Positions 37,004 to 62,364 of a DNA stretch of 64,000 bases are shown here, piece by piece. Numbering within the stretch: position 1 is the first letter of the stretch; each line of letters starts with the position of its first letter. Origin of the DNA: an uncultured bacterium (GTDB lineage Bacteria; Krumholzibacteriota; Krumholzibacteriia; Krumholzibacteriales; Krumholzibacteriaceae); the NCBI GenBank assembly GCA_963813815.1, contig CAWFAD010000011.1:160001-224000 (forward strand), written 5' to 3'. Position numbers and translations under genes: made by a program. The notes beneath the pieces were generated by a model that was not told the origin of the DNA, did no database searches, and worked only from the letters and a program-made list of their open reading frames with translations.

Positions 37004-37019
37004 AGGCATGGCGTATGCT
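37004..37019 (+). promoter_or_regulatory. Candidate sigma54 promoter
   Basis: AGGCATGGCGTATGCT, GG-N10-GC spacing, about 12 nt before a hairpin-rich unit. Confidence 0.45.
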
Positions 37020-37100: not shown

Positions 37101-37151
37101 ATGATGATTTCCTGGCTTTGGATCATTGACCTCCTGTGGTGGTTGCGCTGA
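37101..37151 (+). CDS. Candidate Trp-rich hydrophobic micropeptide MMISWLWIIDLLWWLR (in-frame ATGs also at 37074 and 37044)
   Basis: AGGGGGT RBS 7 nt upstream; followed by terminator-like hairpin. Confidence 0.4.
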   Translation: MMISWLWIIDLLWWLR

Positions 37152-37180: not shown

Positions 37181-37240
37181 AAATAAATGTTCCCGTTGAT
37201 ACCAGTAATGCATCGGCGGGAACATTTATTTCCCCTTTTG
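37181..37240 (+). terminator. 20-bp hairpin terminator
   Basis: AAATAAATGTTCCCGTTGAT / ATCGGCGGGAACATTTATTT with two G-U pairs on +, then CCCCTTTT. Confidence 0.7.
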
Positions 37241-37347
37241 TCACGCTATTCCAATTCTTTAATGTTGTTTGTCACCATAGTTCTCTTAGCTCTTGCTAGG
37301 TAATAGCTTACGAATTGATAATATTTTAGTAATATTGCATTTTCCCC

Positions 37348-37375
37348 TTGACACTCCGCGGCGGTTCTCTATAAT
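37348..37375 (+). promoter_or_regulatory. Consensus sigma70 promoter
   Basis: TTGACA-N16-TATAAT with AT-rich upstream region. Confidence 0.85.
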
Positions 37376-37380
37376 TGGCG

Positions 37381-37579
37381 CAACGAGACAAAGAGCGTCT
37401 GACTATGCGGTCGTGATCCGTCTGCTCTCAAGCCTATCTTTGAAGCGAAGCGATCTTGCTGCTCAGGCCTCTGAAGGGTGCGAAGGACACGTCAGGCAAG
37501 GTAGTTGACTTCTCTGTCTCGTTGAAAAAAAAGGGAATTGTTCGGCGTTAGTCGTCGAGCAATTCCCTTCGTTATTTTT
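37381..37579 (+). ncRNA. Candidate structured small RNA of unknown family
   Basis: Starts 5 nt after TATAAT; CAACGAGACA pairs with TGTCTCGTTG (37515-37524); inner stems; terminator; no credible ORF. Confidence 0.7.
37531..37579 (+). terminator. Intrinsic terminator (possibly also serving the convergent TonB receptor gene)
   Basis: 17-bp stem AAGGGAATTGTTCGGCG / CGTCGAGCAATTCCCTT, A-run before and TTATTTTT after. Confidence 0.8.
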
Positions 37580-37612
37580 GAGCCACCGAGACGAGCTGCG
37601 CTGGATCTCTCT

Positions 37613-39685
37613 CTAGTATCTGTAAGAAACCCCCAACCAAAAGATTCTGCCCTGTGCCGGATATCCGCTCTCCGGTTCGTAGTTTTCATCGAGCAGGTTG
37701 CTCACGGTTAGATACGTCTCCCATTTTGACAGGAAGGGCTGCGAGAACTTGGCGCCGAAAACGACGTACCCCTCGTTCTTGACAACCTCCGTCTCCGGAT
37801 CGACCGCGGTCGGCAGCTGGCTGTAGGAGTCCCCGTATTTCGCCATGGTCAGCGCTATGCGCGAGCCGAGCGTCGGCGCCGTATATTCGAGCTTCGCATC
37901 AAGCTTGTATTCCGGCACATCGGTGACATTTTCCGTCGCCCGGCCGGGGCTGACGTCCTCGGCGTCGATGTACGTGAAACCGACGTTCATGGACAGGCAC
38001 TTCACGGGATCGATACCCGCGTTCACTTCAAGCCCCAGCATCTCGATCTCGGCGACGTTATAGTAGAGCTCGTCGGGTGAGGGGAAATCGCGGCTGATGC
38101 GATCCGATATGTCATGATAGAAAGGCGACACCTCGAAGCGCAGCATTCTGCTCACGACCATCGAAATGCCGGCCGTATAGTTTATGCTTCTCTCCGACTC
38201 GAGATCTATATTGCCTGATGATCCGAATAATTCGCTGAGCGTGGGGAAACGGTTCTTTTTGGCGACGGACGCGAAGAGCCTCGTCCTGTCGTTCAAGAGA
38301 AAGCTCGCCCCTATCATCGGATTGATCTCGGTCATTGTTTCAGGTGTCTCCGCGGCGACCTGTTGCACGAGATTTCCGTCATCGTCGGTTTCGTTCGTTT
38401 CCGCTTCCTTGACGTCGAACCAGTCGTAACCGACGCCCGCCACAACGGAGAGTTTCGAATCGAGAAGTATCAGCTCATCCTCGAGGCCCAGCGAACCCGT
38501 ATAGGACGCGCTCTTTTCAAAGGGCAGGTATGCGTCGTCGCGCTGCTCATGACTATCGAGCCTGAAGTTGACGGCGCCCCTGAGGACGTTCCAGCCGGAA
38601 AGGGTGTAATCACCGATCGCCATTCCGCCCGCGATGTAGTCCTGATACCGGCTCGTGGCCATCGCGGTATCGAAGCTCGCATCGGAGTAGGAAACATAGT
38701 CGTCAACGTGGTTATGATAAAAGAGCTTGCCCATCAGGCCGAATGCGCGGGCCAGCTTTTTCCTTCCGCTGAGGTCGGCGCCCCAGTTGTCGTATCTCTC
38801 TATTCTGTCGAACGAAGAAAAGGCGGGCCGGTCGGGAAATATCTTCACCAAATCGATGTTCGGCGGGTCGCCCTTTTCCGAGGCGGAATAGTGCAGGTTC
38901 AAGAAATACTCGGCGTCCTCCGAGGGCTCGAGACCGAGCTTCACATAGATATTATCGGCCCTGAAATCGGAATTGTTGCGCAGGCCGCCGTCTTCAATGA
39001 CGGTATCGACCCTCTCCGCCAATCTCCCCGCGCCCGTTTGCACCACGCCGATTCGGGGCGTGAAATCATCAGAGAGCCTCCATCCATCCCATTCCCGGTG
39101 CATGTAGGAAATCCAGTAGCTCAGACTCCCCTGCTTCATCCCATGCGACAGATAAGCCGATGCGGCGCCGTCCCGTCCGCCCTCGAGCTTTCCCGAAAAG
39201 GTCGCCCTATCGGCGGCCTTCTTCGTAATGATGTTTATGACCCCCGCTTCGGCGTTTGCGCCATAGAGCACCGATGCCGCTCCTTTGATCACGTCTATCC
39301 GCGCCACATTCTCTATCGAGAGCTGATTCATATCGAACTTGCCGTATTTCGTCTCGTAGTAGGGCACGCCGTCGATGAGAATGAGCGCCTTATCCTGAGA
39401 AAAGCCGTGTATCGAAATGCTGGCTTCCATCTTTCTTCCCATCGTCACCTGGACGCCGGGAATATATTGCAGGGCCTCCGCCACGGTGCGGCTGTTCGTC
39501 GCGGAAATATCCTCGGCCGTTATCTCAGTATTGATCGCGATGTTTTTGACGCCCGCCCTCTCGGCTAGAACCAATATCTCGCCGAGTGTGTATGTCTTAT
39601 AGTCTTCCTCGGCCCGCAGGGCGCCCGGAACAATGGACGATCCGAGGATCATCATCATGAATAGAGCTCGTGCCGGTTTCCTCAC
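37613..39685 (-). CDS. TonB-dependent receptor
   Basis: Signal peptide, TonB box-like EILVLAER, plug (LILIDG, RIDVIKGAASVLYG, GVINIITK), NLLDENY, terminal SYRY. Confidence 0.93.
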   Translation of the reverse strand: MRKPARALFMMMILGSSIVPGALRAEEDYKTYTLGEILVLAERAGVKNIAINTEITAEDISATNSRTVAEALQYIPGVQVTMGRKMEASISIHGFSQDKALILIDGVPYYETKYGKFDMNQLSIENVARIDVIKGAASVLYGANAEAGVINIITKKAADRATFSGKLEGGRDGAASAYLSHGMKQGSLSYWISYMHREWDGWRLSDDFTPRIGVVQTGAGRLAERVDTVIEDGGLRNNSDFRADNIYVKLGLEPSEDAEYFLNLHYSASEKGDPPNIDLVKIFPDRPAFSSFDRIERYDNWGADLSGRKKLARAFGLMGKLFYHNHVDDYVSYSDASFDTAMATSRYQDYIAGGMAIGDYTLSGWNVLRGAVNFRLDSHEQRDDAYLPFEKSASYTGSLGLEDELILLDSKLSVVAGVGYDWFDVKEAETNETDDDGNLVQQVAAETPETMTEINPMIGASFLLNDRTRLFASVAKKNRFPTLSELFGSSGNIDLESERSINYTAGISMVVSRMLRFEVSPFYHDISDRISRDFPSPDELYYNVAEIEMLGLEVNAGIDPVKCLSMNVGFTYIDAEDVSPGRATENVTDVPEYKLDAKLEYTAPTLGSRIALTMAKYGDSYSQLPTAVDPETEVVKNEGYVVFGAKFSQPFLSKWETYLTVSNLLDENYEPESGYPAQGRIFWLGVSYRY

Positions 39686-39707
39686 AGCTTGCGTACTCCT
39701 TTGCTCC

Positions 39708-40458
39708 TCAGCGCCCTGGACCCGAGGGCGCGGCGCCCCCGCACACGCCGCACCCCCGCCTTTTCTCGAACGTCACCGTCTCGAACGCCATCGTATCGGC
39801 GCGGAAGATCAGGAGAGCGTTCGCGTCGGGAATCTCGCCGGTCATCAGGTACCGCAGCGCCAGCGTCGTCTGAAGAGATCCGACCGCGGCCGCCAGCGCG
39901 CCGAACGCCGGCGTGGGCTCGGGGTTTCTCAGCTCCCCGGGCATGAGACAGGCGAGACAGGCGGTTTTCGGCGGATTGAAGAAGCTCAGCTGCCCCATCC
40001 ATTCTCGTATCGCCCCGTATACATAAGGGATATTGAGATCGAATGACGCCTTGTTCAGCTTCAAACGGTCGGCGTGATTGTCGAGGCCGTCGACTATCAG
40101 GTCGCATCCCGAGGCCAGCTCGCCGGCGTTGGTCTCGGTCAGCGCGTCCGAGTACGGCCTCAATTTCTATTTCTGGATTCTGCGCCGAGAGTCTCTTCGC
40201 CGCCAGAATCGCCTTGGGCTTGCCGATATCCGCATCCGTGTACAGGATCTGGCGATTCAGGTTGGACAGCTCGACCTTGTCGCCGTCGCAGATGCGCAGA
40301 TACCCGACTCCGGCCTCGGCGAGATAGGTCGCACTGACCCCGCCCAATCCTCCGACTCCGACCACCAGAACCCGCGCGCGCTTGAGCCTCTCCTGATCCC
40401 AGCCTTCGACCATGAGTTGACGTTGGTACCTCTCGATTTCGAGTTTCGATAGCGGCAT
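39708..40458 (-). pseudogene. ThiF/MoeB family adenylyltransferase, split by one frameshift near 40157-40160
   Basis: RYQRQ, GVGGLG, SNLNRQ in one frame; DLIVDGLDN, CLAC, CGVC in the next frame. Confidence 0.85.
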
Positions 40459-40471
40459 GGGAGAAATATCC

Positions 40472-40711
40472 TCAGCCGCCGGAAACGGGCGGCTGGAGGG
40501 TAATGGTCTGGCCGTCGGACGGCTTGTACGACAGGTCCTTCATCTTGCCGTCGACATGAATGAGCGCGACGAAGGCGGGATTGAGCGAAATGTGCTCGAG
40601 GATTTCACCGATCGTCTTCTCGCCCTCGATCTCGACCTTGCGGGTGTAGTGGTCGACGTCGGGTTTAATCATCGCGCGAAGCTGGCCGCCGGCTCTCAGG
40701 AAGATCGTCAT
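40472..40711 (-). CDS. MoaD/ThiS family sulfur carrier
   Basis: 79 aa ubiquitin-like protein ending PPVSGG. Confidence 0.9.
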   Translation of the reverse strand: MTIFLRAGGQLRAMIKPDVDHYTRKVEIEGEKTIGEILEHISLNPAFVALIHVDGKMKDLSYKPSDGQTITLQPPVSGG

Positions 40712-40729
40712 AGCTCATTCCATCCTCTG

Positions 40730-42669
40730 CTAGAACGCCTTCGGTTTGTACCGTTCGCCGCGGACCGCCGGAATGCCGTTCGGAAGCGGCTTTCCCAGGA
40801 GCCCGATCTTTTCGATATTATCCGCCGCGAAATCGAGCTTCAAATCGTGCAGCACCTCGCGGCTGGGATTGCCGTCGTTGTCCCATCCACGGCAGGCGTA
40901 GTATTCATCGAGCATCGTCTCGATCTGCTCCTTGGACAGCCCCTTGCCGGCGTTCGGGCCGGTCGGAATCTTGTCTTCCCAGGATCGCGCCGGCGGGTAA
41001 TCGAACGTGCGGCCGTTCGCCCGGTTGCGTTCGAGGTAATGGCATCGCACCAGATTCCAGATCTTCTCCGAGGTCTTGAACGCCTCGGCGGAATCGATAT
41101 TCCACCCGGTAATGTGGTTGAGCGACTCGACGATCTCCTCCGGCTCAATATCGAGCTCGCCCCAGAAGAGGCGGCAGATGCACCAGCAGTCGAAGAGCGG
41201 CCGGATATGCTGCAGGTAGACCACCACCTTGGCGCGTCCCTCGATCTTTTCGCGCCCCTCGGCCATGTCGACCGTGATGGTCCACGCGCGGTTGTGATGA
41301 GCGCCGATGTCGCAGGTCATGTACGAAAGCATCATCCCCGGAGCGTAGCGACCGTCGTACCCCGACATCTCCTGACCCTTGACCTGCATGGCGAATTTCT
41401 CGCTGCCCCGTCCGATTTTCTCCGCGGCCCGCTTGGTGCCGCCCGCGAAATACTCGCCGATCCCGCGGCGATGCACGATCATGTCGACGAAGTGTTCGGC
41501 GTCCTCCACCGAACCCCAGTTGAGCGTATGCCCTTCGAGATCGTCGGTGGTTATCAGCCCGCGCTGAAAGCACTCCATGCCGAACGCCACCACGCCGCCG
41601 CCCGACATGGTGTCCATGCCGACATTGTCCATCAGCCAGTTCAGATAGGCGACCTGGTTGATGTCGGTCATGCCGAGGTTCGAGCCGCACAGCGCGCCGG
41701 TCTCGTATTCGGGGCCCTCGAGATAGACCGTTTCTTTGCCCGGCAGGACCGCCTTGGTGTACTTGCCGCAGTTCATCCAGCATCCGAAACAGGCCTTGTG
41801 CGTGATGAGGCACTTCTCCACCAGCGCGTCGCCGTCGATGCCCTTGACATCCTCGAAATACGTGGTCTGGAAATTCCGCGTCGGAAGGACTGCATTTTTG
41901 TTGGACCAGTCGATGAAGAAGGCGGTGCCGTACTTCTGCCACGGAGCCATGTTGGGATGAGTCTGCGTCCGTTTGATGATGGCCGACACATGTTCGGTCA
42001 GCTTGTCGAGATCGTGCACCTTGATTCCCCTGGTGCCCCTGACGGCGATCGCCTTGAGCTTCTTCGAGCCCATGACCGCGCCCTGCCCGGTCCGTCCCGC
42101 CTGGCGGCCGTAATCGTGCGTGATACACGAGAAGCGAATGCCGTTCTCGCCGGCCGGTCCGATGGTGGCGATCTCGAAATCCTCGCCCAGGTCCTTTTTC
42201 ATCGCCGGTTCGCATTCGAGCGATCCCATGCCCCAGTATTTCGAGGCGTCGCGAAGCTCGACCTTGTCGTCGTCGATGAAGAGATAGATCGGCTTTGGGG
42301 AGATGCCGGACATAGATCACCATATCGTAGCCGGCGAACTTGAGGGTCGGGCCCAGATGGCCGCCCATATTGGAATCGCCGTGGCCGTTGGTCAGGGGGG
42401 AAATCGAGCCGAAGCCGACTTTGGCGCCCGCCGGGATAAAGCAGCCGCTCATGACTCCCGGCGCTCATGATGAAGAGATTCTCCGGCCCCAGCGGATCGG
42501 CGTCGCGGGGAACCTCGTCGTAGAGAATTTTGGCGACGACGCCTCGTCCTCCGAACCATTCGCGCATCAGCTTCTCATCGGTGGGATGTCTCTTGATCTC
42601 GCCGGTGGTGAGATTGATGCGCAGCGTCGTGCCGGCCAGTCCGTTGGAGCTCGCGGATCGTCTTGCCAT
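40730..42669 (-). pseudogene. Tungsten-type aldehyde:ferredoxin oxidoreductase family protein, frameshifts near 42458 and 42314
   Basis: LRINLT, GGRG, DPLGPEN (frame 1); SPLT, SNMGG (frame 2); GPAGE, GAVMGSKKLKAI, CFGC..NC, GPEYET (frame 3). Confidence 0.88.
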
Positions 42670-43091
42670 TACTTGCTCTCCTTTGCCGGTCTGGTATGAA
42701 CATGGTGATCGCGCCGGTGTTGCACAGATCGGTGCATTTGAAGCAGTTGTCGCAGATGATGACGTGATCGAGGTCGCGATGCTGAAATATCACGCCCGGC
42801 TTGCAGGCCGGAATACAGTCGCCGCAATTGGTGCATTTCTCGAAGTCCACGATATAGGCGCCGTCGTCGCGACGGTAGATCGCACCCTCCGGGCAGACCT
42901 CCATGCACTTGCCGCACTGCGTGCAGACCTTCGGCTTGTATACCCCCGGCTGCGGGAAAAGTGCCTCGATTCTCAAGGCGGCCTTTTTGGGATTGATTTC
43001 GTCGTAATGGGCTGATTGCGCAGATTTGCAGGCACAGGCGGCACCCGCTGCACTTGCCCGACGTTACTTTGATTCTCTTTCGTTCCATCAT
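42669..43091 (-). pseudogene. 4Fe-4S dicluster ferredoxin subunit, frameshifted near 43010 and probably near 42690
   Basis: CSGCRLC..IC in one frame; CTQCGKCMEVCP, CTNCGDCIPAC, CDNCFKC in the next. Confidence 0.8.
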
Positions 43092-43125
43092 GCTCTCGAA
43101 TGCGCGCGAGCCCGGAGTCCGCGGC

Positions 43126-43708
43126 TCACGCCGGCTTGCGCAGCGGGATAAGGGGCCGGATGGCGTTACCGAGATAATATCCGAGATGTATCGTCACCAT
43201 CGAGATGAGCGACGCGGCGACCGCGTCGGTGAGAAGGTACGATCGAATTTCCGCCCAACCGTCCGTGCCCCAGGTTCCGTCGCGGAGAACGAACGCGGCC
43301 AGAATCGCGAAGATCGCATACGATACGTAGACGATGACCGGCGCGGCTAGGGTCCTCTGCAACGCGCTGCAATCAAGGCGTCCTTTGAACGTCGAGTAGG
43401 CGATATCGAAAACGATCCCGTTGATCATCACCGCGGCGACCTGGCAGGGAAAGAAATTGTCTGGAGGCGGTCTTGAACAGGCCGGCGATGATCGCCATGA
43501 TGACGACCGAGCCGGGGAAATGGACCACGCGCTTGGATGCGTAAAGGATAATGATGCCGAGCCCGTAGAGCAGGGCCGATTTGTGCTCCACCCCCACGGC
43601 GCGCAAAGCGTCCCGTCCGAAAAGCTCCAGCATGCCGAATACCGCCCCGAACATGAGCACGAACAGGAGCTTCCTCAAGGCCTGCCGCGGCGCCTCGAGC
43701 GCCCGCAT
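43126..43708 (-). pseudogene. Multi-TM membrane protein resembling ECF S-components, frameshift near 43462
   Basis: FGAVFGMLE...PGSVVIMAIIAGLFK continues as NFFPCQVAAVMINGIVFD in another frame; about 195 aa, 5-6 TMs. Confidence 0.55.
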
Positions 43709-43843
43709 CTTTATTGTCCGGCACTCGCCACCTCCGAAAATCGACCGTCAGAGCTCAAGCCAATTGTCGCAATAATAGCACAATCTCCCTTTGCGTAAAG
43801 AAAAATTAAGCTATGTCTTACAAGGGGATCAGCCGGATCGATA

Positions 43844-46135
43844 TCAGCGAAGCAAAATCATTTTCTTCGCGAACGTCCGTTTGCCGACGGTGAGCCGGTA
43901 GAAATAAACCCCCGACGACGCCGTCCTCCCGTCGCCGTCCCGACCGTCCCACTCGATCAGGTGATGCCCCGCGCCAACCGGCTCGTCGACGAGGCGAGCC
44001 ACGAGACGCCCCCCGATGTCGTACACATCAAGGCGCACATGATCGCGAGCCTCGATAGCAAATCCGATCGAAGTCCGGGGATTGAACGGGTTCGGAACGT
44101 TTTGATCGAGCGCGAGCCGCGCGGCGAGGGTTCGCACCGTCATCTCGGTCGAGCGGATCTCCCGCCCGTCCGACGTCACGGCCGCGATGACGTAGAGGTA
44201 GTCCCGCCCGGGCTCGATCGAGCGGTCGTCGTAGCTTCGCGCCTGCGGAAGAAGGAGGACGGATGTGATGCACGAAAATTCTTCCCCGGGCGTCGAGCGA
44301 TAAATCCGAAAACCGTCGAGCGCCTCGTCCGCGAACGTCTCCCAGCGAAGCGCCACGACGCCATCCATCGCATCCGCCGCGACCGTGGCGAAGGCGACGG
44401 CAACGGGAATGTACTCTCCGAATTGCAGACCGAGACTGCTCCCGTTCCCCGCGGACAAACCGACGAAGTCCTCATTCGGCACGGAAACTGCGAGCTCGCC
44501 GGATGCGCTCCTTCCCCATGCCACGATGGTGCCGTCAGCTTTAAGACCGATACTGTGGTACGATCCCGCGGAGATTGCGGCGAAATTATTATTCGGCCAA
44601 GGAACGCTGCATTGACCCACGGCATTATCGCCCCATGCCACGATTGTGCCATCACGCTTGAGCCCGAGGCTATGATTCGCCCCGCCAGAAACGGAAACAA
44701 AATTCGCGTTCGGACCGGGAACGTCGCACTGACCGTAATCGTTGCGCCCCCAAGCCGCGATGGTGCCGCCACTCCTCAAGCCCAGGCTGTGAGAGAGGCC
44801 CGCGGAAATCGCCACGAAACCCTCGTTCGGCAACGGAATTGTGCACTGACCATCGTAATTCAATCCCCAGGCCACAATCGTGCCATCGGACTTTAAGCCC
44901 AAGCAGTGATAGACGCCCGCGCCAACCGCCACGAAACCCTCGTTCGGCAACGGGACCTCGCACTGATGATAGTAACTATTCCCCCATACCCGAATTTTGC
45001 CGTCAGACCCAAGACCCATGCTGATTTCCGATCCGCAGTCAACCGCGACGTACCACGCCGTCCCGCCGCTCAGCGGCCAAGGGACGTTGCATTCGCCATT
45101 GGGATTGTCGCCCCAGGCGATGAGCCTGCCGTCGTACTTGAGACCCAAAAAGTGGTAAGTCCCGCACGCAACCGCTCTGAAACCCTCGTTCGGCGCGGGA
45201 ACATTGCACTGACCATAGTCATTGAGCCCCCAGCACACGACGGAGCCGCTCGATTTGAGTCCGAGGCAATGAGCATCTCCTCCTGAGATCGCGATGAAAT
45301 TCTCATTCGGCTCAGGAACGCTGCACTGGCCGTAGGCATTGTAGCCCCAGGCCACAATTACGCCGTCGGACCTTAAGGCCATGCAGTGAAGGGCGCCCGC
45401 GGAAATCGCCACGAATTTCTCGTTCGGCGCGGGAACGTCGCACTCGCCGTAAGTGTTGCTTCCCCACACCACAATCGTCCCATCCGACTTGAGACCCATG
45501 CTGAAATGTCCGCCCGCGGCAATCGCTACGAAATTCTCGTTCGGCAACGGGACCGTGCATTGACCATAATAAGTTTCTCCCCACGCCACAATCGTCCCAT
45601 CCGACTTGAGACCAAGGCTGTGCCACGATCCCCCGTCAATCGCTACAAAATCCTCGTTCGGCAACGGGGCCGTGCATTGACCATAATAATTTTCTCCCCA
45701 TCCCACAATCGTCCCATCCGACTTGAGACCCAGGCTGTGAAAAAAGCCCGTAGAAACCGCAACAAAATTCTCGTTCGGCGCAGGAACGTCGCACTGGCCG
45801 TAATAGTTGCTTCCCCACGCCACAATCGTCCCATCCAACTTGAGACCCAGATTGTGCCTACTGCCCGCGGCGATCGTCGCAAAATCTTCGCCCGGCAACG
45901 GGGCGGTGCATAAGCTGCGCATTCCCCACCCCACAAGCGATCCGTCGGATTTGAAACAGATGCTGTGAGATCCGCCGGCGGCGATCGCCGTTATCCCTTC
46001 GAGAGCCGATTGCTCCACCGCAATACGACGACCCCAGCCGACGATACCCCCTCCGACCTGAGCGAATGCGCCGCCGATGCCGAGCATGGAAACCGAGACA
46101 ACGACCAAGCCCAAGAAAACGCATTTCGATCTCAT
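43844..46135 (-). CDS. Secreted RCC1/BLIP-II-like beta-propeller repeat protein with C-terminal FlgD/T9SS-like domain
   Basis: Signal peptide; 14 repeats of AG..HSLGLKSDGTIVAWG.N.YGQC; LDQNVPNPFNP...SGVYFYRL...KKMILLR. Confidence 0.9.
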   Translation of the reverse strand: MRSKCVFLGLVVVSVSMLGIGGAFAQVGGGIVGWGRRIAVEQSALEGITAIAAGGSHSICFKSDGSLVGWGMRSLCTAPLPGEDFATIAAGSRHNLGLKLDGTIVAWGSNYYGQCDVPAPNENFVAVSTGFFHSLGLKSDGTIVGWGENYYGQCTAPLPNEDFVAIDGGSWHSLGLKSDGTIVAWGETYYGQCTVPLPNENFVAIAAGGHFSMGLKSDGTIVVWGSNTYGECDVPAPNEKFVAISAGALHCMALRSDGVIVAWGYNAYGQCSVPEPNENFIAISGGDAHCLGLKSSGSVVCWGLNDYGQCNVPAPNEGFRAVACGTYHFLGLKYDGRLIAWGDNPNGECNVPWPLSGGTAWYVAVDCGSEISMGLGSDGKIRVWGNSYYHQCEVPLPNEGFVAVGAGVYHCLGLKSDGTIVAWGLNYDGQCTIPLPNEGFVAISAGLSHSLGLRSGGTIAAWGRNDYGQCDVPGPNANFVSVSGGANHSLGLKRDGTIVAWGDNAVGQCSVPWPNNNFAAISAGSYHSIGLKADGTIVAWGRSASGELAVSVPNEDFVGLSAGNGSSLGLQFGEYIPVAVAFATVAADAMDGVVALRWETFADEALDGFRIYRSTPGEEFSCITSVLLLPQARSYDDRSIEPGRDYLYVIAAVTSDGREIRSTEMTVRTLAARLALDQNVPNPFNPRTSIGFAIEARDHVRLDVYDIGGRLVARLVDEPVGAGHHLIEWDGRDGDGRTASSGVYFYRLTVGKRTFAKKMILLR
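44420..45994 (-). repeat. Intragenic tandem 117-bp (39-aa) repeats
   Basis: ACAATCGTCCCATCC recurs at 45471, 45588, 45705 and 45822 (period 117). Confidence 0.9.
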
Positions 46136-46256
46136 CTTTACCACCTCTTTGTCCCCATCGCCGCCGAATGGCTGCAAATCAGGGTCGCGCCGGCGCAAAA
46201 CGGCCGAAGCGAAACGTCTCCCTCGCAATAATTATTTGATTGAGCAACCCGTAGTT

Positions 46257-46285
46257 AGTTTATCAGATTCGGCGCAGATTATCAA
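46257..46285 (-). promoter_or_regulatory. Sigma70-type promoter of RCC1-repeat gene
   Basis: TTGATA-N17-TAAACT with TG extended -10 on minus strand. Confidence 0.55.
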
Positions 46286-46372
46286 TCTATAACGCCGCAT
46301 GAGAAGGACGACGCCAATAGCACTCCGAAGACGAGGTGGCCCCCGCCAAAGACGGGCAAGCGATTGAAAAAA

Positions 46373-60012: not shown

Positions 60013-62364
60013 TCAGGAGCCCTGCTGCATTCTGGAGGTGGCCTCGGCGATGAGCTCGGCCGCCGTCGCGGCGCCGCCGGGGTACATGGCATAACCGTGG
60101 GAGGGATAAAACGCGGCGGGGTCATGGAGGCCCTTTTCCTTGAGCGTGTTCACGATGAACGCGCTGACGCGCTCTTCGAGGTAGGCCATCCGCTGGTGCC
60201 GTTCGATGGACAGAACGGCGAAGAGATCCGTTTCCATCCAGGAGAAGAAATCCGTTTTCCGGACCTGCCTCCTCACGCCCATGCTGAGCTCGTTGATGAG
60301 CATGAGCGCCTGCTGGTGATCGCGCTGAAAGAACCCTGCGAGGCCGTGGACGCGGAACATCGTCAGTATGAAGCCGTGATGGTACCGTTCGGCGCGCTCG
60401 ATCTCCTCGCGAATGCGCTCGAGCATGAGACGCTGGTTGTAGCGGAGAAGATCGTCGAAACTGAGCGCATCGGCGGAGGCGCGTCTCTCGTCCGGCCGCA
60501 GAAAGAGCGGCGAGAGCAGCTCTTCCGCCTTCCTGAGGAGCGAGAGCTCGTGCTCGCCGAATATCGAAGAATCGAGCGGGCTCGTCGGAACCTTGTCGTA
60601 TCCGATGAAAACCACGCTCGCCTCGCCCGATCGGTGAATCGGAAAGCCGATTACCGAGCGCGCCGGGGAGGGCTTTTCGACGAGATCCATCTCCGGCGAG
60701 AGATAGCTGAGGCACGCCGCTTCGCCGCGCGCACGCACCATCTCGAGCATCTCGGCGTCGTATTCGAGGCGCCGCCGGCGTTCCGACTCGTCCTCGGGGA
60801 ACCCGTGATAGGCCGATTCCCTGCGATCGGGGCCTTCGTAATGAACGCTTCCCATGGAGGCCTTGACGAGAGTCGCGAGAAGCGTCGGAAGGCGTCCGAT
60901 CTTGACGGAGAGGCTCTCCAGAGCGAAGAACGCGGGCGCCAGCGAAGCGAGCTCCTCGAGGCTCTCGAGCTTGCGGGCCTGCCGCGCGTCGCGGATGAGC
61001 GAGTAAGTGAAGAAACCGACCTGAAAGCGCAGCGCGTCTTTGAGTCTCAGAAACATTTGGAACGCCGGAAGGTTCGAGAACTCGAGAACGAGCACCCCGA
61101 GCGGTTCGTGGTGCACGAGCGGAACGAAGATCGAGGTAATGGCGCCGTCCGTTGTTTTCAGCCGGAGTCCCGTGTCGACGACCGCCTCGGTCATCACGAT
61201 TTCCTCGCCGTCGATGTACGCGCGCGCGAGGCTTCCCTTGTTGCACCGGATTCGCGGGCTCTGGGCATCGACGGGAATCTGCTGGTCGCTGCCTCCGAGG
61301 ATGAGCCAGTCGCCCTCATCCGTGGCCGTGTATATCGCCGCCGTGTCGGCGGAGAGCTTTCGCGCGATGAACTTGCAGAGCAGGGTGAATTTCTCGTGAA
61401 ATCCGGTCTGATTGTGAAAGAGCGTTTCGAGATACTGACGAATCTGAAATTCGAGCTCCCGAACGACCTGCGCGTCGATCATGATGTGCTGGTTGAGGAT
61501 CGGGGCGATGCGCGCGGCCAGCGCCGAAATGGTGCCCAGATCGCGATCGCGCAGCCGACGCTCGCCGAGGTTCGTCGATACGTTCAGCACGCCGAGCAGG
61601 CGCTCGTCGTGGATGATCGGGGCCGAGAGGGCGCTCTGGATGGAGTCGCGCTCCCTGCCGCCGCGGTAGAGCGGGGCGTCGACGACATCCGTGATGAGGC
61701 GCGGCTCCCTCGTCTGTCCCACGAGACCCGCTATCCCTTCGCCGAGCTTCTGGCGCGTGCGCTCGACCACGTCCGAACTCAGGCCGCTCGCGTACCCGAT
61801 GTAGAGCTCGCGCGTTTCCGGGGAGAAGAGCATGATCGAACCGCTCGACGCCCCCACGGTGCGGACGGAGATTTCGAGGAGCCACTTGAGCAGGCGCTCG
61901 CGGTCCGTAATGCGGTTCATGTACTCGAACGCTTCCTCGAGATGCACGGGCCAGGTCTCCGGGCTCCCCGTCTCCTCCTCCTCCTCCTCGGACGGCGAGA
62001 GATGGCTCACCGCCTCCGCCGGATTGACCACCCGTTTTCTCTCGGCTCCGAGCGCCATGAGCTCCTGCTCGAAGCGCTTGCGTTTCTCGGTGACGATGAT
62101 GTAGTCGGCGGCGAGAAACGCCGGGAGAAAGCCTTCGTCGGAAAAGCAGGGGATGCCGATGATCTCGGCGATCTCGAGCGCGACGGCCCGGGAATCGCGG
62201 TCATATATGCCGACGATCTCGACGCCCGGGGTGCGATTGAACTCGCTCAGTATGTTGAGCTCCTCCTCGCCGCCTCCGAGTATCGCGATTTTTATCGGCT
62301 TCCGGGATGAATCCACCTGCGGCTCCGCTCCTTGCGTTAGGGTAACCCGTTGCGAGTAAAGCAA
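60013..62364 (-). CDS. Multi-GAF protein with N-terminal Rossmann-like and C-terminal degenerate GGDEF domain (start uncertain)
   Basis: IAILGGG...VGIYD N-terminus; LGEGIAGLV GAF; EEIERAERY...RKTDFFSWMETDLF...GYAMYP. Confidence 0.75.
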   Translation of the reverse strand: MLYSQRVTLTQGAEPQVDSSRKPIKIAILGGGEEELNILSEFNRTPGVEIVGIYDRDSRAVALEIAEIIGIPCFSDEGFLPAFLAADYIIVTEKRKRFEQELMALGAERKRVVNPAEAVSHLSPSEEEEEETGSPETWPVHLEEAFEYMNRITDRERLLKWLLEISVRTVGASSGSIMLFSPETRELYIGYASGLSSDVVERTRQKLGEGIAGLVGQTREPRLITDVVDAPLYRGGRERDSIQSALSAPIIHDERLLGVLNVSTNLGERRLRDRDLGTISALAARIAPILNQHIMIDAQVVRELEFQIRQYLETLFHNQTGFHEKFTLLCKFIARKLSADTAAIYTATDEGDWLILGGSDQQIPVDAQSPRIRCNKGSLARAYIDGEEIVMTEAVVDTGLRLKTTDGAITSIFVPLVHHEPLGVLVLEFSNLPAFQMFLRLKDALRFQVGFFTYSLIRDARQARKLESLEELASLAPAFFALESLSVKIGRLPTLLATLVKASMGSVHYEGPDRRESAYHGFPEDESERRRRLEYDAEMLEMVRARGEAACLSYLSPEMDLVEKPSPARSVIGFPIHRSGEASVVFIGYDKVPTSPLDSSIFGEHELSLLRKAEELLSPLFLRPDERRASADALSFDDLLRYNQRLMLERIREEIERAERYHHGFILTMFRVHGLAGFFQRDHQQALMLINELSMGVRRQVRKTDFFSWMETDLFAVLSIERHQRMAYLEERVSAFIVNTLKEKGLHDPAAFYPSHGYAMYPGGAATAAELIAEATSRMQQGS

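Follow-up and report, generated by a model that had tools for sequence, protein, structure and literature searches.

A conserved, phylum-restricted structured RNA of Krumholzibacteriota and its possible relationship to 6S RNA

Among described bacterial RNAs, the nearest point of comparison for the RNA analysed here is 6S RNA (SsrS, RF00013), an unbranched rod with paired ends, generally of about 175-200 nt. According to the accessible sections of PMC8876501, its closing arm touches the beta and beta-prime subunits, its central bubble mimics an open promoter and its apical arm mimics the -35 region. The same sections describe a 78-nt version of B. subtilis 6S-1 without the -35 region (6S78), which still binds the sigma-A polymerase, with an affinity about ten times lower, and serves as a template for pRNA; in the available part of PMC8414754, the hallmarks of a pRNA template are a GG at pRNA positions 4/5 or 5/6 and an A next to the start. 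A natural 6S RNA devoid of the -35 arm was not found in the literature searched, where such a form is a laboratory construct. Other species carry more than one 6S RNA or a different polymerase-binding RNA: as far as the accessible text of PMC11077062 goes, B. subtilis has two 6S genes with different timing, and the actinobacterial Ms1 and CoRP, of about 300 and 516 nt, are stand-alone structured RNAs that escape 6S searches.

The window considered here is a stretch of 64,000 nt of an uncultured member of the phylum Krumholzibacteriota. At 37381..37524 on its + strand lies a rod-shaped RNA body of 144 nt, which an initial annotation had proposed to be a stand-alone structured RNA of a possibly undescribed family. 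Single-copy conservation, covariation, a conserved promoter and the absence of an Rfam match all back the stand-alone structured RNA, and two of the checks suggested with the proposal, a homologue search and an analysis of covariation, came out in its favour. On comparative sequence evidence, the RNA is a real, conserved, uncatalogued and phylum-restricted structured family.

With regard to its catalogue status, Rfam at the gathering level recognised in the 64-kb window only 6S RNA at 1550-1736 and five tRNAs, and at E 10 or less the locus, 20 diverse homologues and one homologue alone gave nothing but chance hairpin-type matches, so that the proposal of a possibly undescribed family passed this check. 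The failure to recognise the RNA as 6S, SRP, tmRNA, RNase P or a riboswitch in the initial annotation is likewise borne out: no such model matches, and the genes for 6S RNA, SRP RNA, RNase P RNA and tmRNA all lie elsewhere in the same genome. An identity as SRP RNA, RNase P RNA or tmRNA was thus rejected, each of these roles being filled by another gene. Bacterial Y RNAs are marked by a Ro60/TROVE gene in the genome and by a YrlA-type match; this candidate was also discarded, given that Ro60/TROVE is absent from the RNA's own genome (91% complete) and that Rfam returned no match. A partial search of the main texts of the literature on non-coding RNA of Krumholzibacteria/Krumholzibacteriota did not find the family.

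The RNA is preceded by a perfect sigma-70-type promoter (37348..37375, + strand), in which TTGACA at 37348-37353 and TATAAT at 37370-37375 are exact and separated by a 16-nt spacer, just as first annotated. This perfect promoter occurs once in the 64-kb window and in none of 100 shuffles, and it is one of only six perfect matches in the 2.5-Mb genome. It is conserved in homologues: among 61 distinct copies, picked for the presence of an upstream TTGAC, TTGACA is found in 60 and the perfect promoter in 31. The spacer varies with the family of the host, here numbered f1 to f9: it measures 16 nt in the window's family (29 of 30 copies), 18 nt in the f6/f9 type (19 of 22) and 17 nt in f7 (9 of 9). 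Upstream of the -35 box, an AT-rich stretch (37317..37347, + strand) begins with GATAAT at 37317-37322, where a 9/12 promoter match ends; on composition and this match, it represents a possible UP element or tandem promoter. The 25 nt before the -35 box average 81% AT in the 30 loci of the window's family, 24 of which have GATAA there, and no such stretch was seen in the other 31 loci. The strong expression put forward in the initial annotation is a prediction from this promoter sequence. As read from the sequence, the near-consensus promoter suggests that the RNA is made during growth and would work beside the normal 6S RNA.

Within the transcription unit, the only ATG (37405) reads M-R-S-stop, as had been noted, and no open frame is kept, since the lengths differ between families by non-multiples of three. 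Sequence and folding energy point to a terminator at 37525..37579 (+ strand), composed of an A-run, a 17-bp hairpin (37531-37569) and a T-rich tail. The initial annotation had tied this hairpin to the + strand; its 17 pairs and its preference for that strand hold (-26.7 kcal/mol against -17.4 on the - strand), but it also folds on the - strand and, with a run of eight A on its left, is likely a two-way terminator. In f6, f7 and f9 a T-run directly follows the closing stem of the RNA, and in f1 a separate hairpin does.

The closing stem, in which CAACGAGACA (37381-37390) pairs with TGTCTCGTTG (37515-37524), is present as originally described. The complete 208-nt unit folds at z -4.15, with the terminator contributing much of this value, and the 144-nt body alone is only modestly better than shuffles (z -1.83, 8/200 shuffles), so that the case for the RNA rests on comparison and not on folding energy; since the reverse strand of the 144-mer reaches z -3.69, the strand is likewise given by the conserved promoter and not by energy. 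In an alignment of 36 diverse copies, 90.8% of the cells of the rod model are paired and 17 of 28 pairs show both-side changes, counts that are not probabilities because the copies are kin. None of 500 shuffles was as good, slid registers reached 33-51%, and 40 other rows agree with the model.

From the outside inwards, the rod comprises the covarying closing stem, a variable middle stem, a near-invariant CGUG/CACG helix (37412-37415/37488-37491), an internal loop, a covarying helix (37424-37430/37472-37479), a small loop, a GCC/GGC helix (37432-37434/37466-37468) and a terminal loop of 23-32 nt, the whole measuring about 110-145 nt in 61 homologues. The conserved core (37412..37491) is formed by the last three helices, which in the 36 homologues are 97%, 84% and 91% paired, respectively, the latter two with both-side changes. 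The minimum free energy fold and the homologues agree in pairing 37401-37406 with 37501-37506 and 37412-37415 with 37488-37491. The inner stem GTCTGAC/GTCAGGC of the first reading can pair, but both halves occur together in only one of the 61 homologues, the window's own, and the several short hairpins it was thought to enclose give way, in the conserved interior, to a single rod with a terminal loop. In the window this loop has 31 nt (37435..37465) and contains a U/C-rich strand followed by the motif AGCGAAGCG..UUGCYGC (37444-37462), which recurs as AGCGAAGCG..GCYGC in the loop of most families and is referred to below as the cap. A weak cap hairpin of 3+2 bp is 96% paired with no both-side change and a shifted register is 84% paired, covariation being unable to choose between the two.

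As for its distribution, BLAST gave matches in 42 of 101 related genomes, one of them a short chance match, and a first covariance model gave matches in 62 of 151 genomes of the phylum. The final covariance model was built from 36 diverse copies, which therefore match by construction, with four f4 copies outside the training set; it finds the RNA in 70 of the 151 genomes at E 0.5 or less and in 69 at E < 1e-4, one copy each, in seven of nine families. These are 25 of 32 genomes in f1 plus the window's genome, 1/1 in f2, 3/6 in f3, 6/61 in f4, 15/17 in f6, 10/10 in f7 and 8/9 in f9, with 0/5 in f5 and 0/9 in f8. Many genomes are incomplete, so that a missed genome is no proof of absence; three f3 genomes lack the RNA at its locus, and no match came from nearly closed genomes of f3, f4, f5 and f8. 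The covariance-model search found it in none of 121 genomes of another phylum (Gemmatimonadota-titled centre), and no second copy was found in its own genome.

A pattern scan of a genome collection, blind to f4-type forms, yielded at least 119 loci, of which at least 51 scored 15 bits or more, two of these lacking the promoter; the other 68, among the matches listed, were dropped as chance. The true copies, again among the matches listed, stand in records titled Krumholzibacteriota, Krumholzibacteriia, Latescibacterota or uncultured bacterium. One Patescibacteria-titled and one Chitinivibrionia-titled record carry the same RNA together with the peptide gene described below, and these two titles are probably wrong. 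Scanning metagenomes for the basal motif gave six matches, one of them real and of the f4 type, and three exact pattern matches on viral contigs had neither promoter nor stems and were discarded as chance. The maintenance of one copy across most families of the phylum argues for a cellular role.

A normal 6S gene coexists with this RNA. Rfam identifies 6S in 133 of the 151 genomes, and of the genomes left without a 6S match by Rfam, 5 of 5 gave one with a phylum 6S model, whose training set consisted solely of 30 6S RNAs from the phylum; the normal 6S RNAs of f7 and of one further genome escape the Rfam model yet score 91-112 bits with the phylum model. In the 11 genomes tabulated, the normal 6S gene lies 19-47 kb upstream of the RNA on the same strand. 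Compared with 6S RNAs, B. subtilis 6S-2 and other second copies among them, the RNA stands apart in having its own perfect promoter beside a normal 6S. It is also shorter than the phylum's 6S (174-187 nt), it lacks the apical (-35-like) arm and consequently has a terminal loop where 6S has its central bubble, and nothing in 6S corresponds to its cap, which most families conserve better than any other part. Membership of the 6S family is thus ruled out by length, architecture and model, the Rfam 6S model (RF00013) leaving the RNA unmatched at E 10 or less.

Nevertheless, the two kinds of RNA, both unbranched rods with paired ends, show a partial likeness that the initial annotation had not pointed out. 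In the RNA, in the window's 6S and in the 30 phylum 6S RNAs, CGUGA/CACG is followed by GCC/GGC at similar spacing, a likeness first seen by eye; after GCC, both continue with AA(C/U) and then a strand rich in U and C, and both carry CUUG on the 3' side. Inspection by eye further suggests an agreement of the arm with the consensus of the Rfam 6S family (GUUCG/CGGCA, gccc/gggc, GCC/GGu), and the 23-32 nt of the loop correspond approximately to the length of the two 6S bubble strands. Unguided, the phylum 6S model aligns its closing arm and both bubble strands to the RNA and shrinks 72 apical positions to 4 nt. When this model was run against 40 homologues, 26 had a match, 22 of them best on the sense strand, with a best score of 14.7 bits; 9 bits or more were reached by seven of the 40, all in sense, and by none of 20 SRP RNAs (maximum 8.9). 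In a structure-keeping shuffle test of the RNA against 6S, 7 of 766 shuffles scored as high, a result that rests on one 4-bp helix and two bases; the controls gave 323/1030 for SRP against 6S and 198/1338 for the RNA against SRP. These comparisons are to be read bearing in mind that the motifs were first spotted by eye, that kin are not independent and that G-U pairing gives the sense strand of any RNA an advantage.

Other tests do not reach the same result. Across 31 whole loci the phylum 6S model attains no genome-scale significance, with ordinary hairpins outscoring the RNA; in the reciprocal search neither model of the RNA retrieves 6S RNA, with SRP RNA scoring equally high, and sequence profiles made from the arms of 6S miss the RNA in its own genome. 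A sequence-only profile test against 6S gave 16.8 for the RNA (6/1052) and lost most of its weight because the SRP control scored as high, at 17.4 (15/349). The template CC for the GG hallmark of pRNA, supplied by GCC, occurs in 16 of 36 homologues, and the AA(C/U) strand after GCC in most of f1 only, both under a guessed start site. Weighing these comparisons, descent of the RNA from 6S is plausible, with the chances about evenly balanced. The explanation that we tentatively place first, at somewhat less than an even chance, is that the RNA would be a shortened 6S duplicate acting as a weak RNA polymerase decoy.

In the main rival, which we consider possible though doubtful, some other protein would recognise the cap AGCGAAGCG..GCYGC, displayed on a rigid rod, and the RNA would serve it as decoy or scaffold; the resemblance to 6S would then be due to chance or be a relic of its origin. 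The failure of the reciprocal 6S tests is in line with this idea, and so is the cap itself: in f1, f2, f6, f7, f9 and one genus of f3 no other sequence is as well kept, and the outer stems are variable. On the other hand, every f4 homologue seen has other sequence in the place of the cap and two f3 genomes have a decayed one, with the basal helices remaining; the RNA also has neither a linked partner gene nor, in its own genome, Ro60/TROVE.

The conserved sequence of the weakly paired terminal loop, along with the RNA's own promoter and terminator, could also belong to a base-pairing small RNA whose loop serves as an mRNA seed. We regard this as improbable, considering that the CGUG/CACG helix, far from the loop and needless for a seed carrier, is near-invariant and that the f4 loop is wholly different. 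A ligand-binding or catalytic RNA, such as a stand-alone aptamer or small ribozyme, is quite unlikely as well: many unpaired or weakly paired bases of the cap are invariant and its two registers could act as a switch, but no Rfam riboswitch or ribozyme matches, no pseudoknot is seen, the cap is dispensable in f4 and no same-strand gene lies downstream in the window.

About 230 nt upstream of the RNA and outside its unit, a 16-codon gene (37101..37151, + strand) encodes a tryptophan-rich peptide ending in D-L-L-W-W-L-R, as judged by its ribosome-binding site and by codons that vary synonymously in 59 of 61 loci. It belongs to a phylum-wide type of micro-gene for a hydrophobic peptide of 15-22 residues with the end D-(L/I)-(L/F)-W-W-L-(R/K). 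Further upstream, at 37005-37018, is a GG-N10-GC sequence, which we take to be a sigma-54-like site; the genome has a sigma-54 gene. Type I antitoxins are marked by a long complement to the toxin mRNA and by strict linkage. That the RNA is the antitoxin, or another partner, of this peptide is very improbable: the peptide gene does lie 5' of the RNA in 59 of 61 loci, and in the remaining two the flank is too short to tell, but the longest exact complement to the peptide mRNA is 6 nt. The peptide pattern is also more widespread than the RNA, occurring far above a reversed-pattern control in 129 of 151 genomes, including 57/61 in f4 and 8/9 in f8, two families in which most genomes gave no match to the RNA; of the f4/f8 peptide loci inspected, 20 of 20 lacked the RNA. 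In three f3 genomes the peptide gene occurs without the RNA, directly beside a tRNA gene, and in three f4 genomes the RNA stands at a locus with neither the peptide gene nor the SpoIIE-family phosphatase gene that precedes the RNA in 51 of 55 loci. Either can thus be present alone, and the peptide gene and the RNA are neighbours and not obligate partners.

The surroundings of the peptide gene show further features. A second frame of 5-6 codons lies 3' of it, overlapping its stop in many f4 loci and having its own ribosome-binding site in f7; its residues vary and its length and place are kept, a sequence pattern that hints at translational control. A hairpin after the peptide gene (37181-37231) keeps GTTCCC/GGGAAC and an inner loop in f1, f3, f6 and f9, lacks a T-run in f6/f9 and may be more than a terminator.

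On the other side of the RNA, 25 of the 56 loci whose flank is long enough have a convergent tRNA-Arg(CCU) gene no more than 400 nt away, and there the terminator faces the tRNA. One relative has the peptide gene inverted next to tRNA-Arg(CCU) and no RNA at the locus, an arrangement that points to local rearrangement. In the window, the RNA terminator and tRNA-Arg(CCU) are separated by an 8.8-kb block (37582-46372) with genes for a TonB receptor, a ThiF-family protein, an aldehyde ferredoxin oxidoreductase, a ferredoxin and an RCC1-repeat protein. As 37582-37594 repeats the 3' end of the tRNA in 12 of 13 bases, the block can be read as an island integrated at the tRNA. Its ThiF-family and oxidoreductase genes (39708-40458 and 40730-42669, - strand) appear split over two frames, apparently through frameshifts or assembly errors. 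Elsewhere in the genome, a selenocysteine tRNA lies on contig C12 at 62138-62235.

Finally, a mimic of a 23S rRNA piece that titrates a ribosomal protein can be given hardly any credence, for although the genome's own 23S has AGCC, AGCGAAAGCG, GUCC and GGGCG in the order of the RNA core, the family profile, searched up to E 50, does not match the 23S gene, and the GGGC strand of the RNA pairs, with both-side changes, with an upstream GCUC strand and not in a local hairpin.

Returning to the shortened 6S duplicate, we propose that a duplicated 6S would have retained its closing arm together with both bubble strands, while a short conserved cap replaced the apical (-35-like) arm of about 70 nt. 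The rod could then lie in the downstream DNA channel of the polymerase, with the 23-32 nt loop standing for the open bubble. In the absence of a -35 mimic, binding would be weaker or another enzyme form would be preferred, the choice being set by the cap, and the RNA would act as a low-affinity or differently aimed polymerase decoy alongside the normal 6S, by analogy with 6S-2 in B. subtilis. The more specific version of this proposal, in which the RNA is a natural 'armless' 6S, a second polymerase-binding RNA whose new cap picks a different polymerase form, is offered only as a speculative possibility. The idea that UUGC in the cap mimics a sigma-54 promoter was set aside, as the spacing differs between families.

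This proposal places the RNA close to the engineered 6S78 (accessible sections of PMC8876501), which also lacks the -35 arm; 6S78 is man-made, still binds polymerase and templates pRNA, and has a bubble flanked on either side by short helices; the RNA, by contrast, has a long closing arm and only a 3+2 bp cap. With Ms1 and CoRP it shares the condition of a stand-alone structured RNA escaping 6S searches, and CoRP is also found beside tRNA genes, a likeness drawn from the descriptions in the available text of PMC11077062; there, each species has one polymerase-binding RNA type, while the RNA described here occurs beside a normal 6S. The bacterial small SRP RNA (RF00169; about 100-115 nt) is likewise a rod with internal loops, but the genome's own SRP RNA lies on another contig and has no profile likeness to the RNA.

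Taken together, our findings describe a covariation-supported, uncatalogued RNA family held in single copy across most families of an uncultured phylum. As judged from comparative data, it would be a variant of the 6S kind if the 6S link holds, and otherwise a new family of unknown kind. As a 6S derivative, it would provide a natural test of which parts of 6S are needed; it would also mean that one cell uses two differently built polymerase decoys and that other short forms may have been missed by the standard 6S model.
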